Sequence record: PZ053912.1
DNA length: 64,000 nucleotides
Strand: one strand, 5' to 3'
From: a phage
Part shown: positions 541-11,111 of the stretch, one piece after another
Position numbering within the stretch: the stretch's first letter is position 1
How the letters are laid out: each line of letters starts with the position of its first letter
Position numbers and translations under genes: made by a program
Notes under the pieces: model-generated
Database searches by the model: none
What the model was told of the DNA's origin: nothing
What the model saw: only the letters and a program-made list of their open reading frames with translations

Positions 541-1705
541 CGAAATCTTCCATTTCGTCAAGGTCGTTTTCTATATCTGCTGCAGACGGAGCATCAGAAG
601 TTTTAACCGGAACTTTAGTTGTTGCTTTGCAATTAATAAGGTCATTAACAGCGTCATCAACTTCTTTAATAGAAGAGATAGCACCTAGTTTATATTTAGT
701 TTCAATTGCATCTCGGAAAGGTTTGTGTTTAAACAACGGTCCCCAGAATTCTACACAATCAGTAGCTTTAGCACGCCATGATTTCTCTTCACGAATCATT
801 TCGCCTGTTTCTTCGTCAAGGAATTCTCGAGCATACCAACCAGCTTTAGGCTTAACCACAAAACCGATTTCAGTTGCCATTTCTAACAAGCCACTGAATG
901 GGTCGATACCACCATCGAAATTAACCGTGATTGGGAAAGTAGATTTCTCTTTAACTGTACGAGATTTTTCTGCTTTCAACGTGAAGTCATAACCGGTCAA
1001 TTCTGTACCTTCTTTAACCTGACGTTTAGAGATAAAGAATACGGTGTTAGCAGAGTAAAGAATACCTGTGCCACCGCCCATAATCTCTTTAGGATACAAT
1101 CCGCCAATTTCCATTGCTGTATGGTTGATTGCAACACATGGAATATCTTTAATAGTCAGATAAGGAGTCACAATGCGGAACAGAGATTTAAGTGCCTTAG
1201 CACGAGACATATCACCTACGACTTTCTCGTTCAATGCATCTTCGGTTTCTTTCTTAGATGCAGTATTACCGATTGAATCGATAAAGATAATAACTTTATC
1301 ACCGCGTTCAATCGCGTCAAGCTGATTAGTCATATCAACTTTAAGTTGTTCGACAGATTGAATCGGAGTATGAACTACACGGTCTAAATCAACACCCATT
1401 GAACGAAAATAAGATTCTGAAGCACCAAATTCTGAATCATAGAACAAACAAATTGCATCTTTATATTTCTTCATATATGCTGCAACCATGGTCAGTCCAA
1501 ACAACGTTTTAAAGTGTTTAGAAGGAGCAGCAAAAATAGTTAAGCCTGATTGCAACCCGGCATTCAGTGCACCACCTAATGCAATATTCAACATCGGAAT
1601 ACGAGTAGGGACTTCATCGCGATTATTAAACAGCTTAGACTTAGTCAAGTCTGCAGTCATTTTAGAAGTAGAAGCTTTAATCAGACGAGATTTTAAATCA
1701 GACAT
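533..1705 (-). CDS. uvsX: UvsX RecA-like recombinase
   Basis: 390 aa; MSDLKSRLIKASTSKMTADL... and RecA-fold core recalled from T4 UvsX. Confidence 0.95.
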   Translation of the reverse strand: MSDLKSRLIKASTSKMTADLTKSKLFNNRDEVPTRIPMLNIALGGALNAGLQSGLTIFAAPSKHFKTLFGLTMVAAYMKKYKDAICLFYDSEFGASESYFRSMGVDLDRVVHTPIQSVEQLKVDMTNQLDAIERGDKVIIFIDSIGNTASKKETEDALNEKVVGDMSRAKALKSLFRIVTPYLTIKDIPCVAINHTAMEIGGLYPKEIMGGGTGILYSANTVFFISKRQVKEGTELTGYDFTLKAEKSRTVKEKSTFPITVNFDGGIDPFSGLLEMATEIGFVVKPKAGWYAREFLDEETGEMIREEKSWRAKATDCVEFWGPLFKHKPFRDAIETKYKLGAISSIKEVDDAVNDLINCKATTKVPVKTSDAPSAADIENDLDEMEDFDE

Positions 1706-1804
1706 TGTATTTTTCCATAGGCATCATTATATTTTACTCATGTTTAAAAGATAAGATGATTATATACTAAGGGTTATACAGCATTTAAAACTTTAAACAG
1801 GCTC

Positions 1805-2353
1805 TTAACGAGCCCATTTGATAATTTCTGTAATCAAATAATTACGTTCGCTTGCATTAAATCCTATAACTTTGTTAGCACCGTCATGATTAAGTAATTG
1901 ATACGTTTGGATTTTGTTATGAATTGCAAACTCTTCAAAATATGAAATGACTGTATTAAAACCGAATGAAGACAAAGTAATAAGATCGTCTTCAAAACTT
2001 TCAGTCATTTCGTTACGTGTTAAAATAATTGTGAACACATCATGGTTTTGGCAAAGACGAACATAATCCTGTTCATAAACGTCAAGAACCGAGTCCGCAT
2101 CTTGTCGAATACGTCCATAAACCCAGTTACTAATATATCCACGGTCTAACAGATAAATCTTAGTAGGGTCTAAATAATTCAACATCGTTTCGAAACAGCC
2201 AACTTCATTTCGAGACTTAACATCGAAACGTCCATCAACTGTTCGTTTAGGGAAATCAATCTTTACATATCTTTCACTAATTTCCATTATGTCATTAATG
2301 AAAGTTGTTTTACCAGCATTATCCGGGCCATCTACTAAAATAATTTTAGCCAT
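1805..2353 (-). CDS. P-loop NTPase, small kinase-like protein, substrate unknown
   Basis: 182 aa; Walker A GPDNAGKTT at residues 9-17; sits in the block between uvsX and gene 42. Confidence 0.5.
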   Translation of the reverse strand: MAKIILVDGPDNAGKTTFINDIMEISERYVKIDFPKRTVDGRFDVKSRNEVGCFETMLNYLDPTKIYLLDRGYISNWVYGRIRQDADSVLDVYEQDYVRLCQNHDVFTIILTRNEMTESFEDDLITLSSFGFNTVISYFEEFAIHNKIQTYQLLNHDGANKVIGFNASERNYLITEIIKWAR

Positions 2354-2354
2354 T

Positions 2355-3254
2355 TTATTCCTCGATTACGACATCTTCATATTTAGGTATATTATACGGC
2401 GAAGAAATTAAAGCGTTAAAGTAGATGAACTCGCCAAGACCTGGATGGAATACTTCTTCAGGATTTTCGAAATATTGAATCTTCGGCCGTCCTTTAAGAA
2501 TTTGATAGTACTCAGTTTTAGTTGGTTTAAAAATTCGAATCAGCGCTTCTTCAGGATACTTATTTCTGTCGAAGCTATTATTTGGATCGGTTATATAAAG
2601 CGGTTGGCCTAATTGAATTGCACATTCAACCACTTGTTCAAAACGATAGCACGGGTCACTAATTCGAAATGGATGAAAAATACCATCTAGATGAATAGGA
2701 GCCAAATCACCTACAAGACGCTGCATGATGGAAGGACGTATAACTTTCTGGGTTACGATAATCTTATTACCATCTGCACCTGCGTTAACCAGCACTTCTT
2801 TTTGACGTTCATTCAACACAGTAGTTTGAAGTGAACGATTAACCGACAACATATCAGTTTTTAAGAATTCGTCAATATAAAAACGTGGTTTATTAGGGTC
2901 TGCAGTGATATTGAAATTGAATTCCACATCAAAAGCGCCGTCATATCCGGTGATATCTGTGATTAGAAAATCACAATCATAATAAGCAATTAATGAATCA
3001 ACCACAAATTCATTTTCAGACCAGAAATATTTACGAGTGTTATACGCGTTATCTTTATACCATAATGGAACAAACTTAAATTCTGGAAAAAGACGTTCGC
3101 ATTCTTTAATATCAGATGCATTACGTGGATATGTAATCACATCACCCGGATTAGCACGGTGCAAATGAAGTTGGAAGTTGCCATCCTTAAGGATAGCATA
3201 CTGTCCAGTTTCATAAGACCGCATACTCAAGATAGGTACGCGGAAATTAGCCAT
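2355..3254 (-). CDS. Hypothetical protein at the locus where T4 has beta-glucosyltransferase; candidate DNA sugar transferase (inference only)
   Basis: 299 aa ORF tightly packed between the P-loop gene and gene 42; no resemblance to T4 beta-gt or any motif I recognise. Confidence 0.4.
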   Translation of the reverse strand: MANFRVPILSMRSYETGQYAILKDGNFQLHLHRANPGDVITYPRNASDIKECERLFPEFKFVPLWYKDNAYNTRKYFWSENEFVVDSLIAYYDCDFLITDITGYDGAFDVEFNFNITADPNKPRFYIDEFLKTDMLSVNRSLQTTVLNERQKEVLVNAGADGNKIIVTQKVIRPSIMQRLVGDLAPIHLDGIFHPFRISDPCYRFEQVVECAIQLGQPLYITDPNNSFDRNKYPEEALIRIFKPTKTEYYQILKGRPKIQYFENPEEVFHPGLGEFIYFNALISSPYNIPKYEDVVIEE

Positions 3255-3970
3255 TAGTCAAGGAATCCTTTAACATAATCAAAATCACGTTCAAACACAT
3301 GGGCACTTACCATGGTATGAGTATAATCACCAACTTCTACACCACATTCGTTAGCGATATAATGAAGTAATTTTCCTTGGAGATAAAAATCCAACTGCAT
3401 AACAACAGCACAGTTCTGAGAACGCATATGACAGTGGGTATAAAGCTTACCATCACGAATATAATAAGTCACTGAGTCAGTACATGGATATTCAAGTGTT
3501 TCGTCCGAATCAAGCAAAGCCTGATCTGAACTTTCAAGAATTTGAAACACAACTCTTCGAGAGTTAGGTTTCTCTTTAAGTTCTTTGAGAAGAGCTGGTA
3601 ATTGGGCCGCAATGCGAGGACCATAGAAAGTGTTGAAGTTCGCCGGCAAAACATCTGATTTTGGTTTAGAAATAAATTTAGCGACATTAGGATATGCCTT
3701 AAACGCTTCTTCTGCGTTGGTACCACCAGAAATCATAAACTTCCAGAAGTCTTCGGCATATTCATAAGAGATGCGGTTAATACGTGGGTCGGTCATTTTG
3801 AATGATGATGGAGTGTCAACAACTACTGTCATAGACCCAATTTCATTACAACGTCCAATACGAGAATCAGTTACGAATTCCGGGTTTTCTAAAATTTCAC
3901 GATTGACTGCTTTAAATGCGGTTTGAAAATCTGCGGCTTTGATATATTTCATTGTGTTATGTTTTCCCAT
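3254..3970 (-). CDS. 42: dCMP hydroxymethylase (thymidylate synthase family)
   Basis: 238 aa; CTDSVTYYIRDGKLYTHCHMRSQNCAVV resembles the active-site block of T4 gp42/thymidylate synthases; T4 position of gene 42. Confidence 0.8.
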   Translation of the reverse strand: MGKHNTMKYIKAADFQTAFKAVNREILENPEFVTDSRIGRCNEIGSMTVVVDTPSSFKMTDPRINRISYEYAEDFWKFMISGGTNAEEAFKAYPNVAKFISKPKSDVLPANFNTFYGPRIAAQLPALLKELKEKPNSRRVVFQILESSDQALLDSDETLEYPCTDSVTYYIRDGKLYTHCHMRSQNCAVVMQLDFYLQGKLLHYIANECGVEVGDYTHTMVSAHVFERDFDYVKGFLD

Positions 3971-3990
3971 GTTTACCTCAATACAATTTA

Positions 3991-4014
3991 TTATATACTC
4001 AATTCGTAAAGCTT
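3991..4014 (-). promoter_or_regulatory. Candidate MotA-type middle promoter upstream of gene 42
   Basis: Minus strand AAGCTTTAC (MotA-box-like) about 11 nt upstream of TATAAT, about 20 nt before the gene 42 ATG. Confidence 0.3.
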
Positions 4015-4146
4015 ATTTGAATTTCTTGACAATGTTGATATAACGTAAAGCTTCAGCATCGATACTTCCAAGAACACTATGAAGAAATGCATCAGCGTAG
4101 TATTCCAATTGAACAGGTTTCTTTAATCACTTTAGCCGCTTTAGTT

Positions 4147-4170
4147 TCAAACAGGCCCTTATGGGCCTGT
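4147..4170 (-). terminator. GC-rich perfect palindrome AAACAGGCCC-TTAT-GGGCCTGTTT (10-bp stem); terminator-like hairpin after the 386-aa gene
   Basis: Seen directly; no clear U tract. Confidence 0.35.
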
Positions 4171-4249
4171 TTAAGAATTTGTTCGTTGCTGTTAATTTTC
4201 ATAGTCAAAATCTCTTCATTAAGTTGGTGGTTAAAAGTTTTTCTAGAAA

Positions 4250-5410
4250 TCATTCCGGGTACCTCAAAGCGTCATCAGAGTTAGTTATATCAATAATAGA
4301 TATAGAGTTTTCTGCTAACCCATTTTTAGATAACTGACGTTTATAATATCTTTCACAATATGTACACGTCGTCCCGCAGATTTCATTAGCACAATCGAAA
4401 TCTGGATGTCTGAACCACCTTTTTTCTAAAAAGCCGTCTAACAAAGAGGTTTCAATATTTACTGTATGTGAAAACTCAATTTCGTTTTCAAGAGTGAAAA
4501 TAGTCTCTAAAGGCTTCCACAGTTCTAACAAATTACCTTCAAACTTTTCAGAAGCGTATGCTTCAAGAACTTTCAAAATGTAGTCTGTGCTACCTGTACG
4601 TCCTGAAACTTTGAATTGAGTGATACCAATATCATTATAAAGTTTCAAATCTTGAGGACGAACAAAACGAGTTCTCAACCAGTTAAATGGGTCTGTATCA
4701 CGAGCTTTAATACAGTGCTGCATAGGATATCCGTTTAAGGATTTAGCATCATCAGCTGTAACATCAGTACTATGGAAAATATAGCAAGAGTCACGATAGC
4801 TACAATGTGTTGTATACCCTTTACCAGCATTAGAACAGAACTCATTTACAAGAACTTCAAATATTATATTGTTCTTATTGCAAAACTCTGCTGCACGCTT
4901 CAGGAAAGAAACTGAACGGTTCTTATGAATTCCACAGCAGACCTTTTTGATATTATATTGGTCATGCAAATATTTGATTTGAGTTACAGCATCGACATGT
5001 AGAATTGTTGAAACTTCAATCTCAATGTCTTTATTGACTTCACGAACAATTTCCATAACAACAGGGTTAGCGATAGTAATACGCCATACGCCTATTGACC
5101 AAAGATACTGAACATAATCCTGAATAGCTTTCTTCTTCCACTCAACTAGTTCTCTTTTTGAACCAGGATTTATCGTGTTGAGTGTATAGTTAAAGCAAAT
5201 ACCTAATTCGTTACAACGTTTAACGTAATCTTCTAACATCTTTTTGTCAACGTCAGGAAGCCTAAAATCAGGTCTGGCTGCTACAAAAGCCATTTCTCTT
5301 GTAGAGCCGTATACTTCATTTATCAAGCTATTAGGATAAGTTTTATTGAGCTCTACGATTTTATCAAGAAGAGCTAAATCAAAATTCGTTCCGATTTTAA
5401 AAGTATTCAT
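4250..5410 (-). CDS. Cys-rich enzyme-like protein of unassigned family; possible Fe-S protein
   Basis: 386 aa; Cys clusters CSNAGKGYTTHCSYRDSC and C-terminal CANEICGTTCTYC (contains CxxxCxxC); lies inside the sugar-nucleotide gene block. Confidence 0.45.
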   Translation of the reverse strand: MNTFKIGTNFDLALLDKIVELNKTYPNSLINEVYGSTREMAFVAARPDFRLPDVDKKMLEDYVKRCNELGICFNYTLNTINPGSKRELVEWKKKAIQDYVQYLWSIGVWRITIANPVVMEIVREVNKDIEIEVSTILHVDAVTQIKYLHDQYNIKKVCCGIHKNRSVSFLKRAAEFCNKNNIIFEVLVNEFCSNAGKGYTTHCSYRDSCYIFHSTDVTADDAKSLNGYPMQHCIKARDTDPFNWLRTRFVRPQDLKLYNDIGITQFKVSGRTGSTDYILKVLEAYASEKFEGNLLELWKPLETIFTLENEIEFSHTVNIETSLLDGFLEKRWFRHPDFDCANEICGTTCTYCERYYKRQLSKNGLAENSISIIDITNSDDALRYPE

Positions 5411-5467
5411 TTTTTTACATCTCGCGTTAATTGATGCGATGGTTTTTTGCAGGTCTTACTTAAATTA

Positions 5468-5854
5468 TTATAGATTCGGTTTATATGATTTAAATGTTTC
5501 GAATTCGCCTTTATTCATAAGAGCTTTGAATTCGTCAGGACGCATAGCTTTGTCGTCGATAATCCAATCATATACTGGTTTATGTGTTAGCAAATTATGG
5601 TACTTCAAGCCAATGTTTGCCAAGTTCTGAATCAGACTTGGGAGAATGTCAATTGCTATACGACCAGGACCTACTGACTTCATACCACGAGCAGTGTAAA
5701 GCGTTATGGTATGCCCTGCATCATACAGGGCATTAATGGCAGACACCATTTCGACGTCTGGTTTGAAGTTCACGTAATCACGATTGTTATTCCACTCTGT
5801 TATACAATCATCGACATCAAAACAAAGATTAAGCATGTTTTCTACACGGTGCAT
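5468..5854 (-). CDS. HAD-superfamily phosphatase, small
   Basis: HAD motif I FDVDDCIT and C-terminal KPxxDWIIDD; start ambiguous (ATG at 5869, 5854 or 5836); 5854 gives a TAATG overlap with the upstream stop. Confidence 0.65.
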   Translation of the reverse strand: MHRVENMLNLCFDVDDCITEWNNNRDYVNFKPDVEMVSAINALYDAGHTITLYTARGMKSVGPGRIAIDILPSLIQNLANIGLKYHNLLTHKPVYDWIIDDKAMRPDEFKALMNKGEFETFKSYKPNL

Positions 5855-7542
5855 TAGATTCGTTCCCATTGATGAGTGATATCGCCACCGATTGGACGAT
5901 AGGAAACACCAGTTTCTTTATCAGTTAGTACCCATTTACCAGGATTTTTTGTAATCAGAGTAGCCGTTACAGGTTCTGCTACGTCATAACTAATAGAGCC
6001 GTCTTGAAGTACACGGCCCATGTTACGTAATTGCTTAGTCAGAAGTTCCATACCTTTATAATATGCGGCTACCGCTTTAAGTGGATTATTCTTGAAATAA
6101 CCACCTAATGCAATCCAGATAATTGCCACTGCCAAATGATGATACTCGTTAAACGAACTCATCTTTCCATATTTGTAAACTAATGGATTGATGTTAATAG
6201 TCACATTACAAGTTGTTTCATCAATAGTAAACTGTCCCCAGGTCGGATTAGCATTGAATTCATCATAACCTGAAACAGCATAAAGCACTTTAGCTTCATC
6301 GTACAATTTTGGCCCGTAAATCTTGGTTTCGCCAAAATATCCACGAGGGTCGATAAACTTGACTTCACCATTATCAGTAATCATAGTATTACTGAAGTTC
6401 GGGTCACCATGAATAACAGAGTACTGTCCCTGAGAACGGTTATGATAACGAATAAGGTGTTCTAAAGCTTGTTTCAACATTGGCTTCAGACGTCCAATCT
6501 TAGTGTAGTTCACATGTGTGATTTTACCGAATGAATCAATCAATGGTTGAATACTTTCACAACGATCAATAACTTTCGTATAGAACTCTTTAGTGAAATC
6601 ACGGCGAACAGTTTCAGGACTTACAAAATAAGTGTCTGTGCTGAATTTCAGTGCATCTAAAATTGCATCAACAATTTGTGGACGAGCAAGACTCGATTTG
6701 GATTTAATATATTCAAATGCCGGCTTACCTTTAATGCGTTCCATAATAAAGTGGCCGCCAGGATGATAACTTACAATCCGTGGAACTGAATCTGATTTAA
6801 CTTTCTTATACCAATTGACTTCATCTTTTTGAAGTGCAACGCCCTGTTCTGTTAAAGCAATCTTTGTTACCGTTTCTTCGCCAATTTCAACTGCATTAAA
6901 ACTACGATTAAGTTCACGAACTTCATGAGCTTTTTCAAGTTTAGGCATATCACCAAGGTCGATGATATTCATAAGCTCTGATTTATTGAATGCGCTGCCG
7001 TAAAGGAATTCTACGAAATCACGTCCTTTGCAGTATTCATGAATTTCCTCATCAGTAGAACCCATATAGAATTCCCAGTCTTTGAACTGATAAATTCCTA
7101 CAACATTACCACCTGTTGAACCTACATTAGTGATATTTTCACCGTCGAAATTATATCGACATTCGTCACCCTTAACATAGATTGCGTTAACATTCCAAGA
7201 CCACGAACCAAAATCAGGAATAATATCACACCAGTTAACAATTACATTATGGCCGTCTAAATCTTTGTGCAATTTAGCAAGAGCATAAGCAGAACCATAC
7301 GCTTCATCAACTGTACGAATAGTCACATTGAACCCTTCTTGCTCACAATAAGCTCGAACAGTTTCAGCAAATTTTGAATGAACTACTACAATAATTTCAT
7401 CTGCGCCAAGGTCAGAATAAATTGTATACAAATTGCTCAGAATAGTGTCTTGTTTATAGTTAACAAGCACCTTAGGAATATGATGCGTTATTGGATACAA
7501 ACGAGTTGCCAGTCCAGCACCAAGAATAACAGCTTTTTTCAT
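5854..7542 (-). CDS. Bifunctional sugar-phosphate nucleotidyltransferase (N-terminal) / APH-choline-kinase-fold kinase (central-C-terminal)
   Basis: 562 aa; N-terminal AVILGAGLATRL glycine-rich nucleotidyltransferase signature; later VIHGDPNFSN ... KFIDPRG resembles the catalytic loop of APH/choline kinases. Confidence 0.7.
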   Translation of the reverse strand: MKKAVILGAGLATRLYPITHHIPKVLVNYKQDTILSNLYTIYSDLGADEIIVVVHSKFAETVRAYCEQEGFNVTIRTVDEAYGSAYALAKLHKDLDGHNVIVNWCDIIPDFGSWSWNVNAIYVKGDECRYNFDGENITNVGSTGGNVVGIYQFKDWEFYMGSTDEEIHEYCKGRDFVEFLYGSAFNKSELMNIIDLGDMPKLEKAHEVRELNRSFNAVEIGEETVTKIALTEQGVALQKDEVNWYKKVKSDSVPRIVSYHPGGHFIMERIKGKPAFEYIKSKSSLARPQIVDAILDALKFSTDTYFVSPETVRRDFTKEFYTKVIDRCESIQPLIDSFGKITHVNYTKIGRLKPMLKQALEHLIRYHNRSQGQYSVIHGDPNFSNTMITDNGEVKFIDPRGYFGETKIYGPKLYDEAKVLYAVSGYDEFNANPTWGQFTIDETTCNVTININPLVYKYGKMSSFNEYHHLAVAIIWIALGGYFKNNPLKAVAAYYKGMELLTKQLRNMGRVLQDGSISYDVAEPVTATLITKNPGKWVLTDKETGVSYRPIGGDITHQWERI

Positions 7543-7723
7543 GTTGTGGTCCTCATTGGTAAGTAGGAGTATTGTACACTATTCTAGTTAAAGCATTCAT
7601 ACTTTGCTTGTAGTCCAATCATAATCCATCCAATTACAAGTGTTGGAATCATTACTGGAGCCGTTAAGCTCCAGTAGATAGTCATGACAAGCATCAATAG
7701 TAAAAGTCCTATTGTTATTGCTT

Positions 7724-8359
7724 TCATTGTTCGCCTCGTAACATGGCACCTAGTGCACCGCCAGGGTGGAACTTAAGGAAGTCATTAGAGGTAAATCCAC
7801 GCTCAGACGAAAGGTTGATAGCAAACGTATCGATAAGCGCTAACAACAATGTAGTGGACATGGTCGGAGCCAGAGAATTCTCATCAACCTCTACTGCGAT
7901 GCCTGTACAGAAAGAGTAATCAAAAAGGGCTTCATTTTCTTGTGGAATGTCCGGGTTACAATGCAACAGAATCTGTTTGACGTTCGGACGAATCATTTTA
8001 AGATGCTTAGCCACGCCTATCATTTCTTCAGTTTTACCAGAACGACTAATATGAATCAACACATCATTAGGCGCAATGAATCCTGCATCACCGTGAGAAT
8101 AATGCCCAGTGTTCAAGTACATACTCGGGATACCGAGTGAAGCAAATGTCTCAGAAGCTTTAGTTGCAATATTAGCATTCTTACCAACACCTGTAATAAT
8201 TACTCGGCTTTCATAATTACTAAGTCCTGGGCGTCGAAGAGTTTCTAGAATAGCATTATAACGAGCAGGGTTTTGACTAATTACTTTGGCCATAGCGGCC
8301 AAAGAAGAAGCTTGTTTTATGATTGCGTCAATAGCGATAGTAATAGGAGTAGTTTTCAT
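7724..8359 (-). CDS. SIS-domain sugar-phosphate isomerase, KdsD/GutQ-like arabinose-5-phosphate isomerase core without CBS domains
   Basis: 211 aa; GVGKNANIATKASETFASLG, HGDAGFIAP, ISRSGKTEE and C-terminal FHPGGALG match my memory of the KdsD SIS domain. Confidence 0.75.
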   Translation of the reverse strand: MKTTPITIAIDAIIKQASSLAAMAKVISQNPARYNAILETLRRPGLSNYESRVIITGVGKNANIATKASETFASLGIPSMYLNTGHYSHGDAGFIAPNDVLIHISRSGKTEEMIGVAKHLKMIRPNVKQILLHCNPDIPQENEALFDYSFCTGIAVEVDENSLAPTMSTTLLLALIDTFAINLSSERGFTSNDFLKFHPGGALGAMLRGEQ

Positions 8360-8399
8360 ATTTCTCTCATTTAATTAGTTTACCGTCCATGACATTATA

Positions 8400-11111
8400 T
8401 CAAAAATCGAACATATCGAACAGAGATGCTTTCTTCTCGTAATCGAGTTTCGCTGCTGATGTGAATCCTTCAAGTGGTTTAATAAATGTCTTCTCAAGGA
8501 GAACAGTGTAGTCCATCCAATGAAGTACGTCGTCTTTAATTAAATCGGTGATTTCAGTACCAGAAGGCCATGCGATACATTTATCACCGAATGGGTTTCC
8601 TTCACGTAAAGGCAGAACATATACTTTTTCACCTTCTACAACTTGCGGTGCATCGATATTACCTTTGATAGCCCGGTTATACGTCAGAATTCCACGAATA
8701 TGGAACGGGCATTTGGGACCAGGGAATCCACCTACATCATATTTAGCAATGTTATTCGCAGAAGATACCGACGCGATGCTAATATAATTCAATTGACGGA
8801 ATTCTTTTTCAAACTCTTTAAAATATTCTTGTAATGATTCTTCACCTTCTTGAAGCATACGACGAATACATTCTTTAAGAGCTTTCTGTACTGCTTTAGG
8901 AGTCGAAGATTTCTGAGTCTCTAGACCCATGATTTTGAGTTTAGGCTCAGCGTAACGAGTACCTTCCATATCCCACACGTTTAATGCATAACGTTTCTTA
9001 CCAGTCCAGAATCCACCAATACCTTTAGAACCGAGTGGAGGCCCAGCGATAGCTTCTCGGTCCATGAACATTAAGTGTTGTTTATTGTTCATGTATTCAC
9101 ACATTTCACGGAAACCTCTATCAATAGCTGGTTCCATACGTTCACGAGCGAACTTATCTAAGAAGTCTACCCAATGGTTGGTATCACGGAATTTAGATTC
9201 ACCAACCTTATCGATAATTTTATCAGCAGATACGTAAATAGAGTCTGTATCACCATAAAGAACGAAAGCTTCACCTTCTGTACCACAAACTTCATTCAGA
9301 TATTCATTAACTTTACGTTCAATCCACTGTAAAGCCATTTGACCAAATGTTGTGATTGCAGTAGCATTACGCAAATCATAATAACGGAACCAAACGTTGC
9401 CAAGTGCACCATAAAGTGAGTTGATAAGCAATTTACGGTTAATTTGGGCAGTCATACCTGCAACTTCAGTACGTTGAGCTCTAAACAACATTTCATTAAG
9501 AGATTTAGCAGACAACTTTTTAATCTTTTCTTTAATCTCATCGCTGAAGTCGAAACGATAATCAACATCTAATGGTTCGTCAACAGAAAGATTAGGATTA
9601 TGCAATGCCTCTTTAATTATTTCGCCATTACGTTGAGCCGCAAGCATATAACCTTTATGTTCTTTACGTTGATTAAAGACCTTAGTGATTTCAGTTGGAA
9701 CTACACCATCACGGTCTTTATAATACATCATGCCGTTAGGAGAGCAACTGTACACATCGGAAGGACGTTCAGCGATTGCGTTAATATAATCATGTAGTGG
9801 AGCTACTTTAAACGTTCCTGCTATTGTTTCTGGGCTAATATTCACTTGGCGAATAATACTTGGATACAGAGATGTAAGGTCGAAACTCATTACATATTTG
9901 TATCGATTTGGAATAGGTTCCTTAACAAAAGCGCCGGGATAAGGTTGAACCGGGTGAGAACGACCTTGTGGAATCACCTTGTTCTGCTCTTTAAGGCTAT
10001 TAAAAATAATAGCATCCCATGTTTTAATTGGGCTAAACACAGATTGAATCTGTATCTTAGCATAATAACCCATGTCCAAACTCAAGTTGATGAACTGACG
10101 CTTAGCATCAATTTGCAATACACGATACACGTCGATAATGTTATAAGAAATATATCGTTGGTGATTGCTTTCACGAAGCTTAGAAATAGGGCCGTCATAT
10201 TTCAGTTTACCAACGTTCAATTCAAATTCTGAAATGTAATCCAGAGAATATGACGGTTGATTGGTAAAAGAGAATTTTTTGTAAAGGTCAATGTAATCAA
10301 GAACAGAGATACCGAACAATGTAATGATTTCACGAGAACCATACATGTTTTCGATAACTTTAACACGAGTTTTACGATGTGGTGATAAACGTTTCGCAGT
10401 AGATTCGCCAAAAATATTCTTGATTCGGTTATACACATATGGAATATCAAATGACTCAACGTTCCATCCAGTCAAAATGACAGGAGTTTTCTGTTGCCAG
10501 AAGTTGAGATATTCCATCAACAATTCTTTTTCGTTATCGAACGGCATATAAATGATTTTATCGATAATTTCTGATGGAACTTCATCACCACCTTGTTCTT
10601 GAAGCTTAGCCGCAATTTCGATAGACCATTCTTCTACATTACCATATGGAGAATTCAATAGATCAAATACGTAGAACCTGTCATCAATTGAGTCATAATG
10701 GGTGATAGCATCAATCGGATGTTTTGCTTGCGACGGCTCAGGGAACCCATCCGGAGATGTTACTTCGATGTCGAAGTTAGCCACACGAATTTTTGTATGG
10801 TCGTATTTGATTTCATAGTTATAAGTGTCAGACAAATACGCCAATTTGAAATCGTCCATGCCAAGTGCTTCAAGTCCGATATCTTCCATGCGTTTAATCC
10901 ATTGGGAGGCATCACGCATATTAGCGAACAACTTACGAGTGCACGGCTTACCGTAGATATCGAAATATTTCGTAGCCTGACTTTCTGGACAATGAGCAAA
11001 CAGTGATGGTTTATATTCTACTTCACGAGTACGTTCACGACCATTAGAATCGATGTAACGTTCAAAAATTGAATCACCAATCTGTTCAACCGTTAAGTAA
11101 AATTCTTTCAT
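8400..11111 (-). CDS. 43: DNA polymerase gp43 (family B)
   Basis: 903 aa; MKEFYLTVEQIGDSIFERYIDSNGRERTREVEYKPSLF..., exo motif FDIEV, pol motifs SLYPS and YGDTDS; recalled as RB69-type gp43. Confidence 0.97.
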   Translation of the reverse strand: MKEFYLTVEQIGDSIFERYIDSNGRERTREVEYKPSLFAHCPESQATKYFDIYGKPCTRKLFANMRDASQWIKRMEDIGLEALGMDDFKLAYLSDTYNYEIKYDHTKIRVANFDIEVTSPDGFPEPSQAKHPIDAITHYDSIDDRFYVFDLLNSPYGNVEEWSIEIAAKLQEQGGDEVPSEIIDKIIYMPFDNEKELLMEYLNFWQQKTPVILTGWNVESFDIPYVYNRIKNIFGESTAKRLSPHRKTRVKVIENMYGSREIITLFGISVLDYIDLYKKFSFTNQPSYSLDYISEFELNVGKLKYDGPISKLRESNHQRYISYNIIDVYRVLQIDAKRQFINLSLDMGYYAKIQIQSVFSPIKTWDAIIFNSLKEQNKVIPQGRSHPVQPYPGAFVKEPIPNRYKYVMSFDLTSLYPSIIRQVNISPETIAGTFKVAPLHDYINAIAERPSDVYSCSPNGMMYYKDRDGVVPTEITKVFNQRKEHKGYMLAAQRNGEIIKEALHNPNLSVDEPLDVDYRFDFSDEIKEKIKKLSAKSLNEMLFRAQRTEVAGMTAQINRKLLINSLYGALGNVWFRYYDLRNATAITTFGQMALQWIERKVNEYLNEVCGTEGEAFVLYGDTDSIYVSADKIIDKVGESKFRDTNHWVDFLDKFARERMEPAIDRGFREMCEYMNNKQHLMFMDREAIAGPPLGSKGIGGFWTGKKRYALNVWDMEGTRYAEPKLKIMGLETQKSSTPKAVQKALKECIRRMLQEGEESLQEYFKEFEKEFRQLNYISIASVSSANNIAKYDVGGFPGPKCPFHIRGILTYNRAIKGNIDAPQVVEGEKVYVLPLREGNPFGDKCIAWPSGTEITDLIKDDVLHWMDYTVLLEKTFIKPLEGFTSAAKLDYEKKASLFDMFDF

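Follow-up and report, generated by a model that had tools for sequence, protein, structure and literature searches.

A GT-B fold protein in the beta-gt slot of an RB69-like phage, a proposed base-proximal arabinosyltransferase acting on 5-hydroxycytosine

T4 beta-glucosyltransferase (beta-GT) is an inverting glycosyltransferase (GT) of the GT-B fold, with 5-hydroxymethylcytosine (hmC) as its acceptor and UDP-glucose as its donor. In phages RB69 and DLP3, gp48 and gp80, respectively, make 5-hydroxy-dCMP with O2 and flavin (Lee et al., PMC13326640), and the DNA of both phages carries arabinose ether-linked directly to C5-O of the base (PMC13326640). RB69 gp46:47 bears the label "arabinosyltransferase 1" in the same study, where it is hypothesised to act as the first GT of this pathway (PMC13326640), and in a paper on the Durham phage collection the ortholog from the Mosigvirus phage NP is the first of two putative DNA arabinosyltransferases (PMC13390438). 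Arabinosylated 5-hydroxycytosine guards phages against restriction enzymes, some CRISPR-Cas types and the DNA glycosylase Brig1, as stated in PMC13216743 with attribution to Mahler et al. 2025. Here we analyse the corresponding gene in the phage sequence record PZ053912.1, a stretch of 64,000 nucleotides (hereafter the window), where an open reading frame (ORF) on the minus strand at 2355..3254 encodes a protein of 299 amino acids (the 299-aa protein). A reading made earlier from the letters of the window alone (the sequence-only reading) had proposed this protein as a DNA glycosyltransferase. That finding is correct in essence and already known; since papers from 2025-2026 name RB69 gp46:47 "arabinosyltransferase 1" on the basis of fold and synteny, the assignment made here is no discovery. 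What is added is a quantitative coupling of the family to thymidylate synthase (ThyA) homologues with a D169N signature (48/49), the recognition of the 299-aa family as the universal GT of the module as opposed to an accessory gp3 type, and the existence of fusions to a thymidylate-kinase-like (Tmk-like) kinase or a HAD phosphatase.

The UvsX, gp43 and 42-like neighbours, together with a DNA identity of 97.5-98.2% between the region and RB69, HY126, ZQ3 and other phages, identify the window as that of an RB69-like Mosigvirus. By sequence comparison, the gene is the ortholog of RB69 ORF046c+047c (gp46:47), its product being 98-99% identical to the half-proteins ORF047c and ORF046c, and it is intact in the window and split in the old RB69 record. 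The RB69 reference record AY303349 splits two genes of the cluster, ORF046c/047c (2155-3055) and ORF052c/053c (5652-7338), each of which is a single ORF in the window and in close relatives, and both splits have been put down to sequencing errors (PMC13326640). Apart from its being intact, nothing material distinguishes the window gene from the family to which RB69 gp46:47, DLP3 gp79 and TH1_063 of Shewanella phage Thanatos-1 belong (PMC13326640, PMC13390438, PMC12838424): orthology is direct, extending in a direct comparison to full-length TH1_063 at 48% identity, and the position, between the 5-hydroxy-dCMP synthase and the Tmk-like kinase, is the same.

In the ORF listing of the window, the 299-aa ORF starts with ATG, and the coordinates and length given by the sequence-only reading proved exact. 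In a TAATG junction, this ATG shares a base with the TAA stop of the ThyA-like gene upstream (3254..3970), and 1 nucleotide separates the stop of the ORF from the ATG of the Tmk-like gene (1805..2353), so that all three follow one another head to tail with practically no space between them. The T4 gene order is 43 - imm.1 - imm - 42 - beta-gt - segA - uvsX, and that of the window is 43 - sugar genes - 42-like - 299-aa ORF - Tmk-like - uvsX. The ORF therefore fills the T4 beta-gt slot, between the ThyA-family 42-like gene and uvsX, and the synteny first noticed between the two phages is borne out by both gene orders; the placement "upstream of gene 42", in contrast, holds only in plus-strand coordinates, since by direction of transcription the ORF lies downstream, as beta-gt does in T4. 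Promoter and terminator scans of 1600..8500 gave signal no higher than that of shuffled controls.

An indication of what the 299-aa protein acts upon comes from the ThyA homologue immediately upstream (3254..3970, minus strand; Pfam Thymidylat_synt E 2e-15), a flavin/O2-dependent 5-hydroxy-dCMP synthase by its signature, which would make the acceptor base. This neighbour matches the HY126 structures PDB 9iqc/9ir2/9iqu at E 8e-161, being virtually the same protein as the crystallised flavin enzyme of that phage, and is only 25% identical to T4 gp42. It carries the motif MRSQN where T4 gp42 has MRSND, placing N at the position of D169 in E. coli ThyA, and N at this position is diagnostic of flavin-dependent 5-hydroxy-dCMP synthases (PMC13326640). 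The signature of the adjoining enzyme thus implies that the acceptor is 5-hydroxycytosine and not hmC. A T4-type hmC glucosylation system was considered and rejected on the hydroxylase signature and the 9iqc match. It is on this point that the sequence-only reading fails: its hmC-DNA acceptor has to be given up, whereas its assignment of the protein to a GT of the DNA-modification pathway stands on the GT-B fold, the gene neighbourhood and independent literature. Nor are position and necessity the only arguments available, as had been supposed, since fold, conservation of the neighbourhood and literature also support the assignment.

The association with a hydroxylase is general. Neighbourhoods were compared across 52 viral loci encoding family members together with three loci fetched earlier, 55 in all. 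A same-strand ThyA homologue lies no more than 1.5 kb upstream of the GT in 48 of the 51 informative loci, and within 300 nucleotides in 43. N occupies the D169-equivalent position in all but one of the 49 ThyA homologues detected (48/49), and the T4 gp42 pattern occurs in none. Taken together, these counts indicate that the family is linked to ThyA-superfamily members of the hydroxylase branch. The sole exception to the signature (L058:3615-4304) reads MRSQS instead of MRSQN and lies beside a GT homologue that is 26% identical to the 299-aa protein.

Sequence searches with the 299-aa protein returned almost nothing. There were no matches at E<=1 in Pfam, including none to Glycos_transf_1, NTP_transferase or Epimerase_2, and nothing meaningful in NCBIfam; the PDB profile search gave three matches, the best at E 0.16 and none a plausible relative, and a single-sequence search of the PDB found no match and hence no structure of this protein. 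The only family match was PHROG 3891, annotated "unknown function". The lack of an assignable motif noted previously is in keeping with these results, as is the reported absence of a T4-type glucosyltransferase, given that tblastn of T4 alpha-gt, T4 beta-gt and RB69 gp3 against the whole window yielded nothing better than E 0.1. A BLASTP comparison of the 299-aa protein with T4 beta-GT (E 3.7) indicated no homology, and hhalign of the 299-aa family against the GT4-like gp3-type GT detected no similarity.

Structure prediction was more informative. An alignment of 56 family sequences was used to build an AlphaFold2 model of the 299-aa protein (mean predicted local distance difference test score 95.1, predicted template modelling score 0.89), in which two Rossmann-like beta/alpha/beta domains enclose an interdomain cleft, the defining architecture of the GT-B superfamily, and the best 60 structural matches were all GT-B fold proteins. 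A Foldseek search of the PDB recovered the same fold, with UDP-GlcNAc 2-epimerases (E 4e-6) and MshA at the head of the list. Against the BFVD viral models, the best matches were orthologs, including both RB69 halves, followed by many viral glycosyltransferases; the homologue from Acinetobacter phage KARL-1 is 46% identical and superimposes with a template modelling score (TM-score) of 0.95. On the basis of this model we assign the GT-B fold with confidence, and the fold comparison that had been suggested for this protein therefore produced no confident fold of unrelated function. With T4 beta-GT the 299-aa protein shares its genomic slot, its predicted general fold class and, by the reading proposed below, the addition of a sugar to a C5-modified cytosine, and differs from it in sequence, acceptor, donor and isoelectric point (pI; 5.13 versus 9.05 for the T4 enzyme).

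The 56-sequence alignment also defined a set of family signature residues: S10-M11-R12-S13, D24-G25-N26, R74, F193-x-P-F-R197-x-S-D200, T222-x-P-N225, K246 and H270. R197 (in FPFRISD, following strand 192-194), K246 and H270 are invariant, and position 275 is nearly always acidic (E, once D). In GT-B enzymes the NDP-sugar donor is bound by C-terminal-domain residues, a basic one after C-beta1 and an acidic one or a His where the last long helix begins. By predicted topology these four positions would correspond to such a donor site, and R197, K246, H270 and E275 of the C-domain are probably the donor-binding residues. The invariant N-domain loop S10-M11-R12-S13 is predicted to line the cleft, and the same topology suggests a role for it there. 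Among the nearest structural relatives are bacterial retaining GT4 enzymes (6kih sucrose-phosphate synthase, 6n1x BshA, 3c4q MshA, 2gej PimA and 8b5s WaaG) with 7-12% identity; compared to these, the 299-aa protein is much smaller, has no Glycos_transf_1 match, and reads H270-x4-E275 in place of the EX7E motif. T4 alpha-GT (1y6f) and the RB69 gp3/HY126 GT (9iqz) are likewise ~70-100 residues longer and show no detectable sequence or profile similarity. Three family memberships were examined and rejected: GT4/Glycos_transf_1 on sequence grounds (no Pfam match, no credible PDB profile match and no EX7E), UDP-GlcNAc 2-epimerase on the Epimerase_2 profile taken together with the best structural match, and sugar-1-phosphate nucleotidyltransferase, the protein having a GT-B fold and no NTP_transferase match.

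Homologues fall into 138 clusters, occur in 349 phage genome records, and form 228 representative clusters among 1.84 billion proteins; judged by sequence, the family is small, phage-specific and real, and the protein is no "orphan", as it had been called. The records include phages of Klebsiella, Serratia, Yersinia, Proteus, Enterobacter, Erwinia, Kosakonia and Providencia. RB69-like phages encode a second, unrelated GT (RB69 ORF003c/gp3) that lies outside the window and whose HY126 ortholog, not that of the 299-aa protein, is the subject of PDB 9iqz/9ir0. Unlike the 299-aa family, this GT4-like type is confined to Mosigvirus and Acinetobacter phages, its 212 phage records naming Escherichia, Shigella or Acinetobacter phages save for a handful with host-less names. 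The breadth of hosts among the 349 records, set against the 212 of the gp3 type, implies that a GT of the 299-aa family is universal to the pathway, the gp3 type being accessory. Such a distribution is in keeping with a base-proximal role for the former and an extending role for the latter. In a distant branch that is not T4-like, the neighbourhood is reduced to a minimal module of Flavodoxin_2, ThyA-like, GT and Tmk-like genes, and no homologue of the sugar-nucleotide genes of the window was detected within 9 kb of these loci. The retention of the GT beside the ThyA-like gene without sugar genes nearby links the 299-aa protein with the base and not with the making of the donor. GenBank records label the gene and its neighbours inconsistently: the ortholog is a "glycosyltransferase" in NRG-P0074 and in Acinetobacter phages; the entries listed under the match are "RNA polymerase binding protein" in the HX01, VAC36 and CAU_ECP01 records, beside a thymidylate synthase homologue, and "cysteine desulfurase" in the Kc304 record.

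From these data we consider it probable, though well short of assured, that the 299-aa protein is a nucleotide-sugar-dependent GT of the GT-B fold that adds the first, base-proximal arabinose to 5-hydroxycytosine. In the pathway that we envisage, the upstream ThyA homologue would hydroxylate dCMP to 5-hydroxy-dCMP (5hodCMP), as shown for its RB69 and HY126 orthologs; a gp1-type deoxynucleoside monophosphate (dNMP) kinase would phosphorylate 5hodCMP and the phage polymerase would place 5-hydroxycytosine into DNA, as shown for RB69 (RB69 gp159); and an isomerase, a kinase/uridylyltransferase and a HAD phosphatase would make UDP-arabinofuranose, the isomerase step being suggested by fold and family matches. 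The 299-aa GT would then attach the first arabinose at the cytosine 5-hydroxyl, giving ether-linked 5-O-arabinosyl-cytosine, and a second GT of the RB69 gp3 type would add the next. Retaining GT4 enzymes keep the anomeric configuration of the donor. As such enzymes are its closest structural relatives, the predicted fold would suit an alpha linkage, which has been proposed for the base-proximal sugar by Lee et al. (PMC13326640). The same authors propose this order of the two GTs, arguing in part from Thanatos, which has only the 299-aa type of GT and is mono-arabinosylated (PMC13326640). It is the base-proximal transfer that commits DNA to arabinosylation, and knowing which enzyme performs it is relevant to phage engineering, to the in vitro production of modified DNA and to forecasts of how sensitive a phage is to host defences.

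Several observations weigh against this assignment. Purified DLP3 GTs, each alone, did not arabinosylate 5-hydroxycytosine-containing DNA with UDP-arabinofuranose or UDP-arabinopyranose (data not shown in that study; PMC13326640), and its authors cannot tell mononucleotide from DNA as the acceptor of the first transfer (PMC13326640). Purified TH1_063, incubated with UTP and xylose-1-phosphate, yielded UDP-xylose as detected by liquid chromatography-tandem mass spectrometry (Brandt et al., PMC12838424), which was reported as UDP-xylose pyrophosphorylase activity. The 299-aa protein matches no GT sequence profile (Pfam, PDB profile search, or hhalign against gp3), the region corresponding to the GT4 EX7E motif reads H270-P-G-L-G-E275, and the protein is acidic, with a net charge of -10. 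Finally, we found no demonstration of transferase activity for the family in the literature consulted, which did not cover He et al. 2026 or Mahler et al. 2025, either of which may settle or contradict the matter. The transferase tests reported for TH1_063 used unmodified C substrates (PMC12838424), and their negative result is therefore uninformative.

The alternative that survives best keeps the fold and the chemistry and changes the acceptor to a nucleotide: the GT would arabinosylate 5hodCMP, the Tmk-like kinase would phosphorylate the product, and the polymerase would incorporate arabinosyl-5-hydroxy-dCTP, making the modification pre-replicative. We regard this as unlikely; the question of DNA or nucleotide as acceptor is sharpened by the present analysis. 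The order ThyA-like, GT, Tmk-like is conserved, with the Tmk-like gene immediately following the GT in 34 of the 52 loci and ranking as the second most tightly linked partner, and in some relatives the two are fused, in either order. The kinase is C-terminal to the GT in P0231, P0232, P0236 and P0258 and N-terminal in P0239; these proteins share the P-loop EGFDRIGKDT, P0232 matches Pfam Thymidylate_kin at E 1.2e-4, and hhalign aligns the fused kinase part to the window kinase at E 0.004 over 162 columns. However, genes that are inherited together as a module may be syntenic or fused without catalysing successive reactions. The RB69 gp1-type dNMP kinase converts 5hodCMP to 5hodCDP (PMC13326640), which leaves the Tmk-like kinase (1805..2353) without an assigned substrate, but phages that lack a gp1-type kinase would need the Tmk-like kinase simply for 5hodCMP. 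The failure of the in vitro tests on 5-hydroxycytosine-containing DNA, and the acceptor question that their authors leave open, also speak for a nucleotide (PMC13326640). So does the acidity of the family, whose median pI is 5.17 compared to 9.05 for T4 beta-GT, although T4 alpha-GT is slightly acidic as well (pI 6.1), and overall pI is thus suggestive but not decisive in discriminating DNA from nucleotide acceptors. A nucleotide-level transfer would, to our knowledge, be the first pre-replicative glycosylation of a nucleobase in any virus, and all characterised sugar modifications of phage DNA that we know of are post-replicative, which we count against it. Moreover, the third arabinose has been shown to be added on DNA (PMC13326640).

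It is quite improbable that the 299-aa protein, while adopting the GT-B fold, is something other than the base-proximal DNA transferase, whether an enzyme resembling UDP-sugar 2-epimerases or a transferase for a later sugar or another acceptor. The prominence of UDP-GlcNAc 2-epimerases among the PDB matches of the model speaks for the first of these, and the presence in the PDB of the HY126 gp3-type GT (9iqz/9ir0), with no structure of the 299-aa protein, suggests that the HY126 study may have centred on the other GT. These points are offset by the absence of an Epimerase_2 profile match, by the phyletic pattern that makes the 299-aa family universal and the gp3 type accessory, and by the reported mono-arabinosylation of Thanatos, which has only the 299-aa type (PMC13326640). 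A role as a UDP-pentose pyrophosphorylase, making the activated sugar rather than transferring it, is highly doubtful in spite of the UDP-xylose formed by the full-length, 48% identical ortholog TH1_063, given that a no-enzyme reaction is the sole control described for that assay in the accessible part of PMC12838424, that the fold is GT-B and not that of sugar-1-phosphate nucleotidyltransferases, with no NTP_transferase match, that the window already encodes a genuine NTP_transferase protein whose HY126 ortholog AfhE is reported as a UDP-arabinose pyrophosphorylase (PMC13326640), and that distant phages keep the gene beside ThyA without homologues of the window sugar genes nearby.

The proposed arabinosyltransferase (2355..3254) is accompanied on the minus strand of the window by genes for its presumed donor, UDP-arabinofuranose. 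A SIS-domain arabinose-5-phosphate isomerase (RB69 gp55; 7724..8359), with which donor synthesis would begin, matches Pfam SIS at E 1e-10 and PHROG 5670, "arabinose 5-phosphate isomerase", at E 4e-116. A protein of 562 amino acids (5854..7542), the ortholog of HY126 AfhE and RB69 gp52:53, combines an N-terminal sugar-1-phosphate nucleotidyltransferase (Pfam NTP_transferase E 1e-9) with a C-terminal sugar kinase (weak APH-type kinase matches), and a HAD-type sugar-phosphate phosphatase (5468..5869) is the ortholog of HY126 AfhF and RB69 gp51 (PDB 9iqw E 8e-88; PHROG 1238). HY126 AfhE, as kinase/uridylyltransferase, and AfhF, as phosphatase, make UDP-arabinofuranose according to work cited in PMC13326640. 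All three genes are present in the window, and at least one of them occurs in 31 of the 38 loci that extend 8 kb or more to either side. In the NRG-P0074 record the sugar kinase/uridylyltransferase is labelled "dCMP deaminase", and an inserted homing endonuclease separates the HAD gene from the nucleotidyltransferase gene.

The Tmk-like gene downstream of the GT (1805..2353, minus strand) encodes a P-loop nucleotide kinase corresponding to RB69 gp45 and matches PHROG 761, "thymidylate kinase", at E 6e-45. A second type of fusion joins an N-terminal HAD-phosphatase-like extension to the GT (P0139, P0150, P0151, P0167 and P0198); it shows DxDG and GDD motifs and matches Pfam Hydrolase weakly. 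For the fusion proteins, single-sequence phmmer searches did not identify the extra domains, and motif inspection, Pfam and hhalign gave moderate support.

Upstream of the ThyA-like hydroxylase, loci of the branch that is not T4-like carry a Flavodoxin_2-type gene resembling flavin mononucleotide (FMN) reductases, directly adjacent at L007:6739-7293, at L042:7790-8293 and in 13 further loci. This arrangement fits the flavin dependence of the hydroxylase and a four-gene module of reductase, hydroxylase, GT and kinase. There is no Flavodoxin_2 homologue in the window, and Mosigviruses presumably use a host reductase.

Between the hydroxylase and the donor genes, the window encodes a peptidase-U32-family protein of 386 amino acids (RB69 gp50; 4250..5410, minus strand; Pfam Peptidase_U32 E 7e-11, with a weak UbiU match). 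The peptidase-U32 family includes O2-independent hydroxylases, among them UbiU/UbiV, RlhA (5-hydroxycytidine, ho5C, in rRNA) and TrhP (5-hydroxyuridine, ho5U, in tRNA). Alignment with UbiU/UbiV showed a G-Y-x-T-x-C-x-x-R motif common to the window protein and E. coli UbiU. The RB69 protein has been termed a "sugar or heterocycle reductase" (PMC13326640). The gene might offer a way of making 5-hydroxycytosine anaerobically, as a backup to the O2/flavin-dependent ThyA-like enzyme. In three distant phage loci (L056:9954-11051, L057 and L061), a U32-like gene comes immediately after a GT homologue (25-27% identical), with no ThyA homologue detectable.

More divergent relatives of the 299-aa protein, 18-24% identical and with a TM-score of 0.75, occur in the T4-like Serratia phages PS2 (NC_024121 24150-24635) and Muldoon (A0A5P8PH66), and these may represent a sister family that uses another sugar or base.

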